Origin: an uncultured Gammaproteobacteria bacterium | GTDB lineage: Bacteria > Pseudomonadota > Gammaproteobacteria > UBA9214 | Direction of reading: 5' to 3' | NCBI GenBank assembly: GCA_963827755.1 | Contig: CAWHCQ010000045.1 | Span: 1 to 12,515 of the forward strand | Length of the DNA: 12,515 nucleotides | Part shown: piece after piece, positions 10,037-12,515 of the stretch | How positions within the stretch are numbered: position 1 is the stretch's first letter | How the letters are laid out: every line of letters begins with the position of its first letter | Position numbers and translations under genes: made by a program | The notes under the pieces: generated by a model | Databases searched by the model: none | Told to the model about the DNA's origin: nothing | The model's input: only the letters and a program-made list of their open reading frames with translations

Positions 10037-10172
10037 CAGACCCACGGGAGTCAGGTGATAGCCAAAATATCTGCACAAACGTGATCCAGTGAGGCGAGGC
10101 CCCGGGTTTCGAGGTACAAACCAGTCAACCGGCACTTCCCGCCGATTCCATGCACGCCCCGCGTAGATAGTG

Positions 10173-11996
10173 ATGATCAGACGACCTGTCAGCCTGCCGG
10201 ACCCGAACGGAAATGACCTGAAAACGCTGCGTTCGCTGGCGCCTTTCCTGTGGCTGTACCGCGGCCGGGTGCTCGCCGCCCTGGCGTGCCTGGTGCTGGC
10301 CAAGGTGGCCAATGTCGGCGTCCCGCTGGTTCTGAAGAACATCGTCGACAACCTCGACATCAACTCCGGTGCATTGATCGTGCTGCCGCTGACCCTGCTG
10401 CTGCTATACGGCCTGCTGAAGCTGGCCAGTTCGCTGTTCAACGAACTGCGCGATGCGGTGTTTGCACGAGTACGCCACGGCGCAATGCGCCGTGTCTCCA
10501 TCAAGGTGCTGGAACACCTGCACAGGCTCTCGCTGCGTTTCCACCTGGAACGCAAGACCGGCGGCCTGTCCCGCGACATCGACCGCGGTACCCGCAGCGT
10601 CAGCTCGCTGATGAATTACATGGTTTTCAGCATCCTGCCGACGCTGGTGGAGATCAGCCTGATCGCCGTCATCCTGCTGGTGAAGTATGACGCCATGTTT
10701 GCGGTCATCACCTTCGTCTCGGTGATTGTTTATATCGTATTCACCATGAAGATTACCGAGTGGCGCATGAAATACAGGGTCGCCATGAACGCACAGGACT
10801 CGCAGGCCAACACCCTCGCGATCGACAGCCTGCTGAACTATGAAACGGTCAAATACTTCGGCAACGAAGAGCATGAATTGCAGCGCTACAGTGAACGCCT
10901 GCATGAATGGGAAAAGTCCGCCATCAAGAGCCAGACCTCGCTGGCTTTACTGAACTTCGGGCAGGCCGCCATTATCGCGGTTGCCGTGACGCTGATGATG
11001 ATCAAGGCGGCACAGGGTGTGGTCGCGGGCAGCATGACGCTGGGCGACCTGGTGCTGGTGAATGCATTCCTGCTGCAACTGTTTATTCCGCTGAATTTCC
11101 TCGGCATCGTCTACAGCCAGCTGAAACATGCACTGGCCGACATGCGCCTGATGTTCGATGTGCTGGAACAGGAACCTGAAATCATCGACCGCCCCGCGGC
11201 GCCTGACCTGAACGCGGATAATGCGGAAGTGCGTTTTGAACATGTTTCTTTCGCCTATGATGCCGACCGGCCGATCCTGCATGACATCAGCTTCAGCATT
11301 CCCCCGGGTCGCAAGGTGGCGGTGGTCGGTCCCAGCGGCGCAGGCAAGTCCACCCTTGCCCGCCTGCTGTACCGCTTCTACGACATCACGGCAGGAAGCA
11401 TATTCATCAACGGCCAGGACATCAGCCAGGTCACGCAGAAAAGTCTCCGCCAGGCCATCGGCATCGTTCCCCAGGATACCGTGCTGTTCAATGACTCGCT
11501 GCTTTACAACATCGCCTACGCACGCCCCGAAGCCACCCAGGCGCAAATCGAGGCAGCCGCACGCATGGCCAATATCCACAGCTTCATCGACAGCCTGCCG
11601 CAGGGCTACGACACGGTGGTCGGGGAACGCGGCCTGAAACTCTCCGGCGGTGAAAAACAGCGCGTCGCCATCGCCCGCGCCATCCTGAAAAACCCGCGCA
11701 TCCTGGTGTTCGACGAAGCCACCTCCAGCCTCGATTCGCACTCGGAACAAAGCATCCTCGACGCCCTGCGCGAAGTCGCCACCAACCACACCACCCTGGT
11801 GATCGCCCACCGGCTGTCAACCATCGTCGATGCCGACAACATCCTCGTCATGGAAGCAGGCCGCATCGTCGAACAAGGCCCGCACCAGCAACTGCTCGAG
11901 AAGAACGGCAGCTACGCGCGGTTGTGGAAAATGCAACAGGAAAAATCCCGAGAGGAACTGGCTGCCGACCTGCAGCCGCTGTTGCAGGACAACTAA
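10173..11996 (+). CDS. ABCB-family fused permease/ATPase, ATM1/AtmA-like exporter (glutathione or metal conjugates)
   Basis: N-terminal TM domain with LHRLSLRFHLERKTGGLSRDIDRG, DSLLNYETVKYF and QLFIPLNFLG (ATM1-type). Walker A GPSGAGKS, Q-loop VPQD, signature LSGGEKQ, Walker B ILVFDEATS, IAHRLST. Start is ATG 10173 or GTG 10170. Confidence 0.93.
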   Translation: MIRRPVSLPDPNGNDLKTLRSLAPFLWLYRGRVLAALACLVLAKVANVGVPLVLKNIVDNLDINSGALIVLPLTLLLLYGLLKLASSLFNELRDAVFARVRHGAMRRVSIKVLEHLHRLSLRFHLERKTGGLSRDIDRGTRSVSSLMNYMVFSILPTLVEISLIAVILLVKYDAMFAVITFVSVIVYIVFTMKITEWRMKYRVAMNAQDSQANTLAIDSLLNYETVKYFGNEEHELQRYSERLHEWEKSAIKSQTSLALLNFGQAAIIAVAVTLMMIKAAQGVVAGSMTLGDLVLVNAFLLQLFIPLNFLGIVYSQLKHALADMRLMFDVLEQEPEIIDRPAAPDLNADNAEVRFEHVSFAYDADRPILHDISFSIPPGRKVAVVGPSGAGKSTLARLLYRFYDITAGSIFINGQDISQVTQKSLRQAIGIVPQDTVLFNDSLLYNIAYARPEATQAQIEAAARMANIHSFIDSLPQGYDTVVGERGLKLSGGEKQRVAIARAILKNPRILVFDEATSSLDSHSEQSILDALREVATNHTTLVIAHRLSTIVDADNILVMEAGRIVEQGPHQQLLEKNGSYARLWKMQQEKSREELAADLQPLLQDN

Positions 11997-12063
11997 CGTT
12001 GTTGTTTTGATTGGGTTTGCCCTGTTGGGCACGGTGCTTTTCTTGTTTTGTCTATTTGTTGGG

Positions 12064-12087
12064 GCGCCTTGCAGGCGCGGTTTTATT
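12064..12087 (+). terminator. Possible intrinsic terminator of the ABC transporter formed by the REP-like hairpin
   Basis: GCGCCT-TGC-AGGCGC stem followed by GGTTTTATT, 68 nt after the stop codon; the U-tract is imperfect. Confidence 0.3.
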
Positions 12088-12141
12088 GGATGCGGGCTTT
12101 CGCGCCCGCCGGCGAGGTGCTTTTCTTTGCTGCGTCGATTT

Positions 12142-12163
12142 GTAGGAGCGCCTTGCAGGCGCG
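12142..12163 (+). repeat. GTAG-type REP sequence (family A)
   Basis: GTAG-GA-GCGCCT-TGC-AGGCGC-G: GTAG tetranucleotide followed by a short palindrome, the layout of RAYT-associated REPs. A degenerate copy (GTTG-GG...) lies at 12058-12079. Confidence 0.7.
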
Positions 12164-12175
12164 GTTTTATTGGAT

Positions 12176-12396
12176 GCGGGCTCTCGCGCCCGCGCGGCGA
12201 GATACTTTTCTTTGCTCCGCCAAAGAAACGTATCCAAAAGAAAGGCGGCCCGAAGGCTTGCCCGCCCTGCGCGGGTTCCCTGCGCTTCTCGCGAAAACCG
12301 GCGCATGCGCAACTCGCAATCTCGCTGCGCTCGAAAGCTCAAACAGGGCGCATGCTTCATCCGGTTTTCACTGCGATGCTCGGCTGCGCCTACGGG
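12176..12396. other. Highly structured non-coding element (candidate non-autonomous mobile repeat or structured RNA/ssDNA)
   Basis: Complementary segments: 12176-81/12188-93; 12182-87/12197-202; 12201-14/12221-34; 12217-21/12244-48; 12249-57/12388-96; 12261-65/12271-75; 12289-92/12373-76; 12293-301/12361-69; 12303-10/12348-55. Confidence 0.7.
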
Positions 12397-12436
12397 AGGG
12401 GTAGATCAAAATCTTAAAACCTGGAACCATAGCCAG

Positions 12437-12515
12437 GTAGGATGGGTAAAGCGCAGCGTACCCATCAGGGTTCGGTGCTTTGATGGGTACGGCCTTCGGC
12501 CTTTACCCATCCTAC
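12437..12515. repeat. Inverted REP doublet (REPIN/BIME-like), GTAG family B
   Basis: Left REP (+, 12437-12467) is GTAGGATGGGTAAAGCGCAGCGTACCCATCA. Right REP (-, 12481-12515) is GTAGGATGGGTAAAGGCCGAAGGCCGTACCCATCA. The spacer is 13 bp and the outer 14 nt are perfect inverted repeats. Confidence 0.88.

Follow-up and report, generated by a model that had tools for sequence, protein, structure and literature searches.

The minus strand of positions 12201-12248 in the window (the whole 12,515-nt stretch of DNA that was analysed) is the conserved 3' module of a ~230-nt structured arm, and sequence comparison indicates that this module very probably adopts a real three-stranded fold, one not recognised before as a triple helix. 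In the proposed fold, the minus strand of 12200-12248 would form a 15-pair hairpin (S2) with a 6-nt loop, four to five of the loop bases would pair with an upstream CCGCC (S1), and the 8-nt pyrimidine linker between S1 and S2 would occupy the major groove of S2 and run parallel to the purine strand there, a geometry that would allow eight consecutive U·A-U / C+·G-C triples. To the whole account, in which this pseudoknot-triplex RNA module caps the 3' part of the arm transcript, we assign a probability of about 0.6.

Read on the minus strand, positions 12201-12250 are GGCCGCC-TTTCTTTT-G-GATACGTTTCTTTG-GCGGAG-CAAAGAAAAGTATC. A repeat search identified an inverted repeat of 14 nt (12201-12214 / 12221-12234; 93% complementary, loop of 6 nt), which together with the sequence bears out the minus-strand layout and the 13/14 stem described in the original prediction. 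CCGCC (12248-12244) complements GGCGG, which is made up of the last stem G and the loop bases 12220-12217, and TTTCTTTT (12243-12236) is a parallel match to AAAGAAAA within the 3' arm of the hairpin. The parts of the module, with the evidence for each, are:

12244-12248, minus strand: S1a, CCGCC, 5' strand of the pseudoknot helix whose partner is the hairpin loop (alignment columns 34-38 with 63-67, both-side changes in all)
12236-12243, minus strand: L1, the 8-nt putative pyrimidine third strand TTTCTTTT, parallel to the purine strand (columns 40-47 versus 70-77)
12221-12235, minus strand: S2a, 5' arm (pyrimidines) of the long hairpin; G12235 closes the helix as half of a conserved G·U pair (inverted repeat and S2 covariation)
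12215-12220, minus strand: hairpin loop GCGGAG, in which GCGG (12220-12217) is S1b and AG is the short loop crossing S1 (sequence and alignment)
12200-12214, minus strand: S2b, 3' purine arm CAAAGAAAAGTATC, followed by T12200, the partner of G12235 in the G·U pair (inverted repeat and alignment)

S2 is laid out as one junction pair, the eight putative triples and six further pairs, with the linker abutting the stem without a spacer, and no indels were found in the module columns among the 96 aligned sequences. The deep groove of an A-form helix brings strands ~6-7 pairs apart into proximity. The window copy has a G opposite an A (12229 / 12206) within the stem, and 8 of the 101 type-A rows in the genus alignment share this variant. 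The module RNA has a folding energy of -15.1 kcal/mol, and its dinucleotide shuffles average -12.4 +/- 3.0 (z = -0.9); with the 107-nt context z is -1.1, and single-sequence values overall (z from -0.9 to -1.4) are uninformative. Since the single-sequence fold is no better than chance, the case for more than chance is the comparative evidence.

For the covariation analysis we used an alignment of 96 sequences, in which copies from within a genome are near-identical, so that independent events are far fewer than the sequence count. Among these sequences, 99.5% of the cells of the S2 hairpin are paired and six of its pairs have both-side changes (e.g. pair 50-81: UA 44, GC 25, AU 19, CG 6). All five pairs of the S1 pseudoknot helix have both-side changes in the same alignment (e.g. 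pair 36-65: GC 44, CG 40; pair 37-64: GC 56, CG 24, UA 7), with only 78.5% of the S1 cells paired. Inside the genus alignment, S1 pair 29-60 is CG in 51, TG in 26, TA in 14 and CA in 2 sequences. Combinations of upstream strand and loop include CGCC/GGCG, TGCC/GGCA, GGCC/GGCC, TGCGC/GCGCA, GGTGC/GCACC, TTGGGC/GCCCAA, CCCCC/GGGGG and TGTC/GACA. Type-B arms contain an upstream hairpin (GCAC-CGGG-GTGC) that competes for S1a, and in one lineage a change in S1a is compensated in this competing hairpin, not in the loop. The order of elements is that of an H-type pseudoknot (S1a - L1 - S2a - S1b - L3 - S2b), with both helices kept by compensatory change. An H-type pseudoknot had been predicted from the window alone, with covariation of the loop and CCGCC named as the check, and the 5/5 covarying pairs agree with it; we regard the pseudoknot as highly likely to be real.

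In 761 of 768 cells (382/384 plus 379/384) the 8-nt linker matches the purine strand in parallel orientation, T going with A and C with G; none of 500 shuffles attained this level. The linker was left free in one search pattern and was specified solely as eight pyrimidines in the class-wide pattern; 80 of the 120 stretches from the linker-free search were read (those other than the 40 labelled L202-L241), and 80 of the 81 listed rows of the class-wide pattern search match at all eight linker positions. The linker tracks at least eight different purine tracts, with the tract/linker pairs AAAGAAAA/TTTCTTTT, AAGAGAAA/TTCTCTTT, AAAAGAAA/TTTTCTTT, AAGAAAAA/TTCTTTTT, AAAAAAAA/TTTTTTTT, AAAGAAGA/TTTCTTCT, AAAAGAGA/TTTTCTCT, AAAGAGAA/TTTCTCTT and AGAGAAA/TCTCTTT. 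Where the stem with AAAGAAGA carries a U·G pair, the linker base is C, showing that it is the purine strand that the linker tracks and not the linker's own look-alike arm. As a control, antiparallel pairing reaches 84.1%, below the shuffle mean of 90%, with 0 compensatory pairs; asymmetric tracts fit the parallel relation only, which rules out a direct repeat and an alternative Watson-Crick hairpin. The triple match is broken in recombinants of the genus that combine a B-type linker with an A-type stem (C19:10235, L084:479 and L116:875) and in point variants (L040 with TTTCGTTT, L046, L076 and L108; in the wider set L145, L191, L184, L180 and G437:C179). C+·G-C triples require protonation, according to the excerpted text of PMC7583470, and the two C+·G-C triples of type B may weaken its triplex at neutral pH. 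The parallel third strand had also been predicted, with about seven triples, and its tracking of the purine strand proposed as a check: the parallel match holds up, and the linker compared here offers eight consecutive possible triples. We have good confidence, from these comparisons, that the triple helix is real.

With regard to the strand that folds, pair 48-83 is GU in 90, GC in 2 and other in 4 of the 96 sequences, and pair 51-80 is U·G in 34 of the 96. These pairs would be A·C mismatches on the opposite strand, which favours the minus strand. Across the whole arm there are 250 G·U versus 35 A·C, and the alifold energy is -31.8 as compared to -22.0 for the reverse complement. The conserved G·U pairs point to the minus strand as the folding strand. 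The folded molecule is, in our judgement, probably RNA rather than single-stranded DNA. In Aggregatibacter, a stretch on the same strand matches the RNA-seq-defined sRNA family RF02902 (45.8 bits), and this stretch ends 23 nt 5' of the TAC that opens the search pattern and lies inside S2a. A promoter scan of a full copy of the element and of the window gave no sigma-70-like promoter, and no U-tract was found 3' of the module. Five sequencing runs contain small shares (0.05-0.19) of a full copy with its flanks, and four of the five are recorded as RNA; contigs of the four RNA-library runs span both arms and both modules, which does not by itself show strand, ends or transcription. The depth of these contigs is inflated by other copies and relatives. 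Covariation is equally compatible with RNA and with single-stranded DNA.

The module belongs to a larger element whose arms are multi-copy, intergenic, located just past gene ends and arranged mostly as divergent inverted pairs. The window's genome contains 12 full pairs, and the intergenic-repeat context that had been assumed for the fold is confirmed. The parts of the arm around the module are:

12249-12275, minus strand: small hairpin GCC-TTCG-GGC and variable-length hairpin CCCGC-GCAGG-GCGGG, 5' of the pseudoknot (other copies have hairpins of differing length and sequence at the same place)
12276-12412, minus strand: arm core with conserved single-stranded motifs, P1, P2 and the apical motif CCTGTTTGAGC...GCGAGTT (comparison of A and B arms, RNAalifold)
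12293-12301 with 12361-12369, minus strand: helix P1 (compensatory differences)
12303-12310 with 12348-12355, minus strand: helix P2 (compensatory differences)
12033-12199, minus strand: 3' terminal hairpin region, enlarged in this copy to ~2.2 tandem 84-nt units, each with a nested REP-type hairpin GCGCCTTGCAGGCGC (tandem-repeat search, period 84)
12437-12515, no strand assigned: separate 79-bp palindromic REP GTAGGATGGGTAAAG...CTTTACCCATCCTAC at the centre of the element and the end of the contig (inverted repeats)

Both P1 and P2 show compensatory differences between arm types A and B, and in the RNAalifold prediction for the arm 18 of 27 pairs have at least two Watson-Crick types. Terminator-like hairpins of the 3' terminal region face an ABC transporter gene. 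The genome has 113 occurrences of the GTAGGAGCG REP, which also borders a Y1 transposase gene. The window copy of the element is cut by the contig end. In a full copy on contig C17, the same palindromic REP sits between the two arms.

Within the genus, 25 of the 37 species have matches to the module, with per-species counts running from 0 to 27, and the module was also found in Pseudomonas relatives, in Xanthomonas, Comamonadaceae, Thiobacillus, Methylococcales, Ralstonia and Ilyobacter. The class-wide pattern (eight pyrimidines, GGNTAC, pyrimidine arm, 5-7 nt loop and purine arm) was run on 401 genomes sampled from Gammaproteobacteria, a class that in the genome collection includes Burkholderiales, and matched 29 of them, against none for the reversed pattern. 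Among plasmids, the Ectopseudomonas module query matches only the Ralstonia 1.98-Mb and Ilyobacter 0.96-Mb replicons; no phage matches were found with this query, and no E. coli genomes match the Aggregatibacter query. The module is joined to different 5' cores by lineage: to the TwoAYGGAY motif in Ectopseudomonas, and to a CUGUYUGAGCG...GCGAGUU core in the window's genome, Ralstonia and Acidovorax. This shows that the most widely shared part of the family is the module, not the Rfam core.

Using cmscan, we found the module 72 nt 3' of a TwoAYGGAY match (RF01731) on the same strand at 7/7 Ectopseudomonas loci, with a divergent partner arm; the TwoAYGGAY scores range from 39.1 to 44.4 bits, with one exceeding the gathering threshold of 43. 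Nothing real from Rfam, TwoAYGGAY included, was found at window positions 11500-12515 at E <= 10, and TwoAYGGAY gave no match at three loci of the window's own genome (L012, L015 and L017; E <= 0.01) or at the module loci of Xanthomonas, Methylobacter, Acidovorax, Thiobacillus and Ralstonia. The window arm does not belong to RF01731 as defined by two adjacent AYGGAY-loop hairpins and at least 43 bits. The module itself has no Rfam match in 16 short loci, and in Aggregatibacter it is adjoined by RF02902. The original prediction could not assign the fold to a named family, which stands for the window arm (no Rfam match) but not for Ectopseudomonas, where the module is the 3' part of TwoAYGGAY RNAs.

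According to the main text of a preprint (bioRxiv 10.64898/2026.09.22.753630), extended TwoAYGGAY RNAs have a predicted "3' pseudoknot", and their core is proposed to be a Csr/Rsm protein sponge. From the position of the module relative to TwoAYGGAY matches we infer that it is this 3' pseudoknot. The words 'triple helix' and 'triplex' are absent from the preprint's main text; its supplements may bear on the point. Like the RNAs described in that text, the arms occur as mostly divergent doublets with REP arrays downstream and mobile-like variation in copy number, and some copies in the window's genome have AYGGAY-loop hairpins inside the terminal 3' hairpin, a variant that the preprint mentions. 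The extended architecture is found here with a 3'-side pseudoknot, 12 divergent pairs and REP-bearing 84-nt units 3' of the module; unlike those RNAs, the window arm has no TwoAYGGAY match and its core is CUGUUUGAGC...GCGAGUU. Among the literature naming TwoAYGGAY, the extension is treated only by the 2026 preprint. Literature searches by concept returned no bacterial repeat-borne triple helix, and searches by sequence words returned only primers or unrelated text.

The arms behave like a mobile element. Five other genomes have 4-13 listed matches each, and within any one of them the matched 37 nt are the same or almost the same from match to match; module variants differ between species. Copies in Methylobacter marinus have a 14-nt terminal inverted repeat (77 sites, <=1 mismatch) with TA on both sides; in the window's genus, the inverted repeat is the two arms themselves. 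An autonomous parent element was looked for: the 11 kb between solitary arms in contig C4 encode SoxY, a two-component system, cytochrome c and others, without a transposase, and a 1.9-kb Methylobacter copy turned out to be an ordinary copy into which an IS with a DDE_Tnp_1_4 transposase had inserted. The module as a scaffold of TnpB/IscB guide (omega) RNA, which would be expected beside a tnpB/iscB gene or an IS200/IS605 end, was rejected as well, with no PF07282 match in the window's own genome (91.8% complete) and no such gene near the copies examined.

These observations bear on the alternative that the same fold forms in single-stranded DNA and is recognised by a recombinase, a transposase or the replication machinery while the element is copied. 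DNA could accommodate these interactions (T·A-T and C+·G-C triples, G·T wobbles) just as well as RNA, a distinction to which covariation is blind, and the near-identical copies per genome, the species-specific variants, the 0 to 27 matches per species and the four genes for Y1 (HUH) transposases that the window's own genome carries would suit such copying. However, no transposase lies in or beside the element (11 kb examined), no TnpB was found, and the sole Y1 gene with flanking repeats has a different REP. The Methylobacter marinus arm sits inside a separate shell with 14-bp terminal inverted repeats and TA duplication, the mark of cut-and-paste transposition of double-stranded DNA, a process that would have no need of the fold. 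Considering also that the module is tied to the TwoAYGGAY RNA motif and to an RNA-seq-defined sRNA, we hold a single-stranded DNA fold to be unlikely. The linker and the 5' arm also satisfy what H-DNA requires of a sequence, being the two halves of a homopyrimidine mirror repeat separated by 6 nt, and many palindromes in the element could in principle extrude as cruciforms, so that duplex DNA might block polymerases or promote recombination. Neither the same-strand purine arm nor the pairing of the loop with the upstream strand is required for H-DNA, yet both covary; the conserved G·U pairs make the strands unequal, and 8-nt arms are short for H-DNA. A duplex-DNA feature is hardly credible on these grounds.

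If the pseudoknot is real and the linker is not its third strand, the linker could be kept for protein binding or for a switch to an alternative Watson-Crick hairpin. The common core 7-mers are mirror-symmetric (TTTCTTT, TTCTCTT) and so also allow antiparallel 7-bp pairing and a one-base-offset direct repeat; the antiparallel register shifted by +1 is 91.1% paired, and linker and stem are near-invariant per lineage. Such a role is nevertheless improbable: AAGAAAAA/TTCTTTTT, AAAAGAGA/TTTTCTCT, AAAGAAGA/TTTCTTCT and AAAGAGAA/TTTCTCTT fit the parallel (mirror) relation only, in-register antiparallel pairing lacks compensatory change and falls below shuffles, and the symmetry of a mirror repeat means nothing to a protein dimer. 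The module could also be a ligand sensor like the SAM-II / SAM-V / preQ1-II / guanidine-III pseudoknots, with a small molecule completing the triple helix, which is the common riboswitch solution (PMC7583470, excerpted text). We consider this very improbable, since the loci scanned have no Rfam riboswitch match, there are many copies per genome past gene ends and beside unrelated genes with no consistent downstream gene, and the eight uninterrupted canonical triples leave no obvious pocket.

The pseudoknot-triplex RNA reading can be compared with known systems. To our knowledge, natural RNA triple helices are few, and in bacteria they are known only as short ligand-filled riboswitch triplexes. 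Like telomerase RNA as described in excerpts of PMC7583470, the module is an H-type pseudoknot whose U-rich loop 1 would occupy the major groove of stem 2 and run in parallel with the purine strand; telomerase RNA has three consecutive U·A-U triples, as compared to eight possible canonical ones here (including one or two C+·G-C), and the module is bacterial, multi-copy and repeat-borne, with no reverse transcriptase context seen. The SAM-II, SAM-V, preQ1-II/III and guanidine-III riboswitches are likewise bacterial H-type pseudoknots with a major-groove triplex (same excerpts), but they have two canonical and one to four non-canonical triples around a ligand in 5' leaders, whereas the module would have a long canonical triplex on the 3' side of a dispersed repeat, without an Rfam match. 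The ENE, MALAT1 and PAN RNAs share long U·A-U runs with interspersed C+·G-C (in part from the excerpts of PMC7583470). ENEs, which are eukaryotic or viral and not bacterial, use a U-rich internal loop to clamp an A-rich 3' tail; in the module, loop 1 of the pseudoknot would supply the third strand and the purine strand lies internally, so with the hairpin 3' arm as its purine strand and a pseudoknot topology it is not of the ENE type. The element resembles REP, BIME, REPIN and MITE sequences in being a dispersed, palindrome-rich mosaic past gene ends with terminator-like hairpins facing flanking genes, in its nested REPs, and in the Methylobacter shell with terminal inverted repeats and TA duplication. 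In contrast, REPs are simple 20-40 nt hairpins, as compared to a ~230-nt arm with covarying helices, a pseudoknot, a putative triplex and cross-class conservation, and no cognate transposase was identified for the arm.

In the account we favour, the RNA would be transcribed outward from the centre of the arm pair, and the triple-helix knot, compact and hard to unwind, would act as a cap by which the 3' part of the RNA is defined or is protected against 3' exonucleases. The proven roles of RNA triple helices are catalysis, ligand binding and stability only, going by the excerpted text of PMC7583470. The original prediction had suggested end protection, a roadblock for polymerases or nucleases, or recognition by a protein as possible functions. 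We put forward 3' protection tentatively as the role of the module, by likeness to the eukaryotic ENE/MALAT1 triple helices. It is doubtful, though conceivable, that the module is a self-contained, horizontally spread RNA 'cap', which would make it the first bacterial counterpart of ENE/MALAT1 and give it the longest canonical triplex of any natural bacterial RNA. In that event, eight consecutive triples would block 3' exonucleases (or helicases or polymerases), with a strength tuned by pH via one or two C+·G-C triples, and the 5' cores would be interchangeable (TwoAYGGAY or CUGUYUGAGCG), so that the module would be more widespread than any single core. What is new is a probable long canonical triplex in many dispersed copies across Gammaproteobacteria and at least one Fusobacterium, with unusually clean three-way covariation, in a ~60-nt module that is compact enough for direct experimental study. 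It may serve as a portable RNA-stabilising part for bacterial engineering, and it would give a structural handle on the function of TwoAYGGAY-type repeat RNAs.

The window's minus strand at 12201–12250 reads GG-CCGCC-TTTCTTTT-G-GATACGTTTCTTTG-GCGGAG-CAAAGAAAAGTATC. An inverted-repeat search found two 14-nt arms (12221–12234 and 12201–12214), complementary at 13 of 14 positions, with a 6-nt loop between them; GGCGG (the last stem base plus loop) is complementary to the upstream CCGCC, and the linker TTTCTTTT is a parallel match to the purine tract AAAGAAAA. The original prediction, an H-type pseudoknot with a matching pyrimidine third strand, was thus reproduced in both its description and its coordinates. 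Taken alone, the fold of this single sequence is no better than chance (folding energy −15.1 kcal/mol vs −12.4 ± 3.0 for shuffles, z = −0.9). The Rfam search that had been proposed as a check found no family in window positions 11500–12515 (E ≤ 10).

Homologues were collected using two patterns. The wider pattern (5′ arm, free 6-nt loop, 3′ arm and CTCGCC only), applied to contigs of one genome per species, matched at least 120 stretches, from which 80 loci with 85 matches were inspected; the looser pattern consists of 8 pyrimidines, GGNTAC, N plus 7 pyrimidines, G, 5–7 N, C, 8 purines and GTNNC. Our test alignment comprises the window, a type-B copy, 79 wider-pattern and 15 looser-pattern sequences, 96 in all, each 107 nt long. 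Selection constrained the arms by their Y/R character alone and left complementarity, the loop and the upstream strand free, and for the 79 sequences the linker too. In hairpin S2, 99.5% of cells are paired; the pair adjoining its base is UA in 44 sequences, GC in 25, AU in 19 and CG in 6, and UA/CG swaps occur at three central pairs, in 17–47 sequences. In the pseudoknot helix S1, 78.5% of cells are paired and all five pairs show two-sided changes (35–66: UA 61, CG 19; 36–65: GC 44, CG 40; 37–64: GC 56, CG 24, UA 7; 38–63: CG 77, GC 6), so that the pseudoknot proposed from one copy does covary among its homologues. For S1 and S2 jointly, 94.3% of cells are paired vs 82.0% in shuffles (0/500 shuffles equal this), and pairing falls to 48–55% when the partners are slid.

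For the third strand, the eight linker/purine contacts were coded as parallel 'pairs' for the covariation test. Parallel T with A or C with G was observed in 382/384 and 379/384 cells, which none of 500 shuffles reached, and CG/UA swaps are found at five of the eight positions (96 sequences). The antiparallel control on the same columns gave 84.1% and no compensatory pairs, less than the 90.0% that shuffles average; the third strand tracks the purine strand, as had been anticipated. Among the 81 looser-pattern rows listed (one of them from G336, an unpublished genome), 80 match at 8/8 linker positions, and there are 10 further rows beyond those listed.

Purine tracts and the linkers found with them (tract, then linker)
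AAAGAAAA, TTTCTTTT
AAGAGAAA, TTCTCTTT
AAAAGAAA, TTTTCTTT
AAGAAAAA, TTCTTTTT
AAAAAAAA, TTTTTTTT
AAAGAAGA, TTTCTTCT
AAAAGAGA, TTTTCTCT
AAAGAGAA, TTTCTCTT
AGAGAAA (Ralstonia), TCTCTTT

Tracts that are asymmetric settle the matter at the sequence level: the linker is the mirror image of the 5′ arm, and both a direct repeat of the 5′ arm and a Watson–Crick helix of the linker with the purine arm are ruled out. With tract AAAGAAGA, the linker has C where the stem has U·G, which argues that the linker reads the purine strand. As judged from these comparisons, the linker is shown to be under exactly the constraints expected of a Hoogsteen strand, and the predicted single-strand pseudoknot fold to be conserved.

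The order of the pseudoknot, S1a - L1 - S2a - S1b - L3 - S2b, is compatible with this geometry. The linker L1 would leave the S1/S2 junction and follow S2 from 5′ to 3′, parallel to the purine arm, exactly as a pyrimidine-motif triplex requires of its third strand. No spacer nucleotides separate L1 from the stem's first G. S2 comprises one junction pair, eight triple-capable pairs and six further pairs (GGNUAC/GUANCU); strands separated by six to seven pairs approach each other across the deep groove of an A-form helix, so this length would be right for the chain to cross back. No indels are found in the linker and S2 columns of the 96 sequences.

Some observations speak against the triplex model. 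Recombinants within the genus combine an A-type stem with a B-type linker (C19:10235, L084:479, L116:875), and scattered point variants lose one triple in the genus (loci L040, L046, L076, L108), in the wider set (L145, L191, L184, L180) and in the looser-pattern set (G437:C179). Type-B arms have an upstream hairpin, GCAC-CGGG-GTGC, that competes for the S1 5′ strand, and in one type-B lineage a T-to-C change in that strand is compensated in the upstream hairpin, not in the loop. Since copies within a genome are near-identical and the A/B difference is one old split, the independent events perhaps number a few dozen, not hundreds.

The repeat-rich stretch that holds the module begins 37 nt after the end of an ABC transporter gene.

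Features of the window
10170–11996, plus strand: fused ABC transporter gene (ABC_membrane and ABC_tran domains)
12033–12216: tandem 84-nt units, about 2.2 copies, first in plus-strand order of the repeat-rich stretch
12200–12248, minus strand: hairpin/pseudoknot module
next to the module in plus-strand order, before the core: variable hairpin
to about 12412: conserved arm core
12437–12515: 79-bp palindromic REP, distinct from the 84-nt-unit REP; the contig ends inside it

Each 84-nt unit contains a terminator-like hairpin GCGCCTTGCAGGCGC and then GGTTTTATT, facing the ABC transporter gene. We note that the unit, an outer hairpin of the element, has a REP (GTAGGAGCGCCTTGCAGGCGC) nested in it and resembles an intrinsic terminator toward that gene. 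The REP GTAGGAGCG nested in these units occurs 113 times in the genome, and seven of these lie around a Y1 transposase (RAYT-like) gene at C17:34362–34580. The 79-bp REP at the element centre (GTAGGATGGGTAAAG ... CTTTACCCATCCTAC) has an inner 11-nt inverted repeat; its GTAGGATGGG occurs 26 times in the genome, including some tandem arrays (e.g. C18:16–544).

A search of the window's own assembly (2.85 Mb, 52 contigs) with the 421-nt stretch 12000–12420 returned 40 matches. These include 12 full elements of 614–811 bp, with two inverted arms around a short centre, besides two arms that stand alone and two copies truncated at contig ends (including the window's), which bears out the repeat setting first proposed for the fold. 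Read on the strand carrying the fold, the arms of each pair point outward (a divergent pair). Types A and B are usually partnered with each other, and they show compensatory differences within arms (GAAAACCGG/CCGGTTTTC vs CCAATCCGG/CCGGATTGG, and ATGCGC/GCGCAT vs CGCGCA/TGCGCG); one arm position carries hairpins very unlike in length and sequence between copies. Each arm therefore appears to fold on itself, not against the other arm. In crude ORF calls, the closest ORF on the left is directed at the element in 10/12 cases and the closest on the right in 7/11, and the gap is ≤40 nt on at least one side for 9/12 full elements.

The two solitary arms, both type A, lie inverted and 11 kb apart (C4:87462–87805 and C4:98837–99093; L121), which suggests either that a rearrangement split one element or that two elements underwent an inversion between them. 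Ordinary genes, for SoxY, a LuxR-type response regulator and PAS histidine kinase, cytochrome c and a CBS protein, lie between them, with no transposase in these 11 kb. In some copies (C40:74829–74900 and C4:87520–87575 of this genome, and locus L032) the terminal 3′ hairpin is replaced by a two-hairpin insert with AYGGAY-type loops, CATGGATG; cmscan gave no TwoAYGGAY match at E ≤ 0.01.

The module and its 5′ neighbour are present in 25/37 species genomes of the genus (own genome counted), and in 14/19 of those at least 90% complete. The genus alignment has 170 module instances, from 60 stretches of relatives and further loci: 101 are type A (purine tract AAAGAAAA; about five are partial look-alikes from 84-nt units), 56 are type B (AAGAGAAA) and 13 are other or broken. 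Both types are found throughout the genus. By record title, the 80 wider-pattern loci come from Pseudomonas, Ectopseudomonas, Aquipseudomonas, Stutzerimonas, Halopseudomonas, Xanthomonas, Lysobacter, Dyella, Rheinheimera, Alishewanella, Aggregatibacter, Polaromonas, Acidovorax, Variovorax, Hylemonella, Giesbergeria, Thiobacillus, Methylotenera, Methylobacter, Methylovulum, Crenothrix and Methylocaldum, and from MAGs labelled Ectothiorhodospiraceae or Gammaproteobacteria, which bear the arm types of the window's genus. BLAST placed the module on a 1.98-Mb Ralstonia replicon and at six sites on a replicon of Ilyobacter polytropus (Fusobacteriota). The looser pattern was found in 29/401 sampled genomes of the class (26/320 genera; backwards control, 0). 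Five other genomes have 4–13 listed matches each, identical or nearly so over the matched 37 nt, and the variants differ between species. Loci labelled Candidatus Kapabacteria or Paceibacterota (L127, L190, L163) have modules identical to Comamonadaceae and Methylobacter types, so these contigs are likely mis-binned. A MAG labelled Cystobacterineae has a unique all-A/all-T variant.

A 2026 preprint (10.64898/2026.09.22.753630) describes, in its main text, 'extended' TwoAYGGAY RNAs in Pseudomonadota, with 16,086 matches in 1,148/1,324 Pseudomonas strains, 68.4% of doublets divergent and REP arrays downstream. From its position relative to TwoAYGGAY matches, we infer that our module is the 3′ pseudoknot of that text. 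The window's arm is a relative with a different core, CUGUUUGAGC...GCGAGUU, which is present too in Ralstonia and Acidovorax; the arm gives no Rfam TwoAYGGAY match (window 11500–12515 and three own-genome loci). An apical motif, CUGUYUGAGCG...GCGAGUU with a covarying closing stem (window 12311–12347, Ralstonia L243 1392–1484 and the Acidovorax consensus), holds the place taken by the TwoAYGGAY hairpins in Ectopseudomonas. On these comparisons the family is a mosaic in which no part is shared more widely than the module.

The family has further mobile DNA layered onto it (nested REPs, a shell in Methylobacter marinus and an IS inserted in one copy). In M. marinus (L279, G054:C1:498739–499058), a single arm lies inside a unit of 320 bp that has the inverted repeat AACTGATGTTACGC at its ends and TA on both flanks (TA duplication). 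This repeat has 77 sites in that genome (≤1 mismatch), often as pairs 120–510 bp apart with other contents, and the unit probably represents a separate MITE shell family. A putative second small pseudoknot lies 3′ of the module in Methylococcales and Comamonadaceae copies (L138, L139, L142, L157, L171 and others): CUCG and CGAG enclose a loop containing UCGGGU or GCCGGG, and ACCCGA or CCCGGC comes next.

As to which strand folds, the closing pair is G·U in 90/96 sequences and G-C in 2, the second pair is U·G in 34/96, predicted pairs across the arm include 250 G·U vs 35 A·C, and RNAalifold gives −31.8 for the sense alignment vs −22.0 for its reverse complement. The G·U excess and the sense preference indicate that one strand folds, the window's minus strand. 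This fits RNA and single-stranded DNA alike, and a fold serving the copying of the element as single-stranded DNA is one of two main alternatives to our reading. Pointing to RNA, the module has in 7/7 Ectopseudomonas loci a TwoAYGGAY (RF01731) match 72 nt to its 5′ side, on the same strand and with a divergent partner (39.1–44.4 bits; gathering score 43), and in Aggregatibacter an RF02902 match on the module's strand ends 23 nt 5′ of the search-pattern TAC (inside S2a); text in PMC5909427 traces RF02902 to an RNA-seq sRNA survey. RNA-library contigs span a full copy, and such contigs prove neither strand nor transcription; no promoter-like site was found in a full copy and the window, and no U-tract 3′ of the module. 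The other main alternative is recognition of the fold by a protein. Within a conserved single-stranded motif, GCGCAGGGAAC at window 12276–12292 (Methylococcales, GCAGGAAG; Ectopseudomonas, GCGAGGGAAC), there is an A(N)GGA-like core, which presumably resembles Csr/Rsm binding sites. The preprint's main text suggests Csr/Rsm protein sponging and mobile-element-like expansion.

That preprint already covers the repeat family and predicts a 3′ pseudoknot, and its main text (supplements apart) has no occurrence of 'triple helix' or 'triplex'; our literature search found no published report of a triple helix in a bacterial repeat of this kind. In the account of natural triplexes drawn from the review PMC7583470, telomerase RNA has three U·A-U triples and riboswitches have two canonical and one to four non-canonical ones, whereas eight consecutive canonical triples are predicted in the module. 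Such a run in a bacterial repeat RNA would be new, within a known kind of structure. The same account lists stability elements as the third functional class of triplexes. In our preferred reading, the folded molecule would be an RNA transcribed outward from the centre of the pair, and the knot with its eight triples would form a rigid 3′ domain that is hard to unwind; tentatively, at a probability of about 0.35, the knot may protect or define the 3′ part of this RNA.
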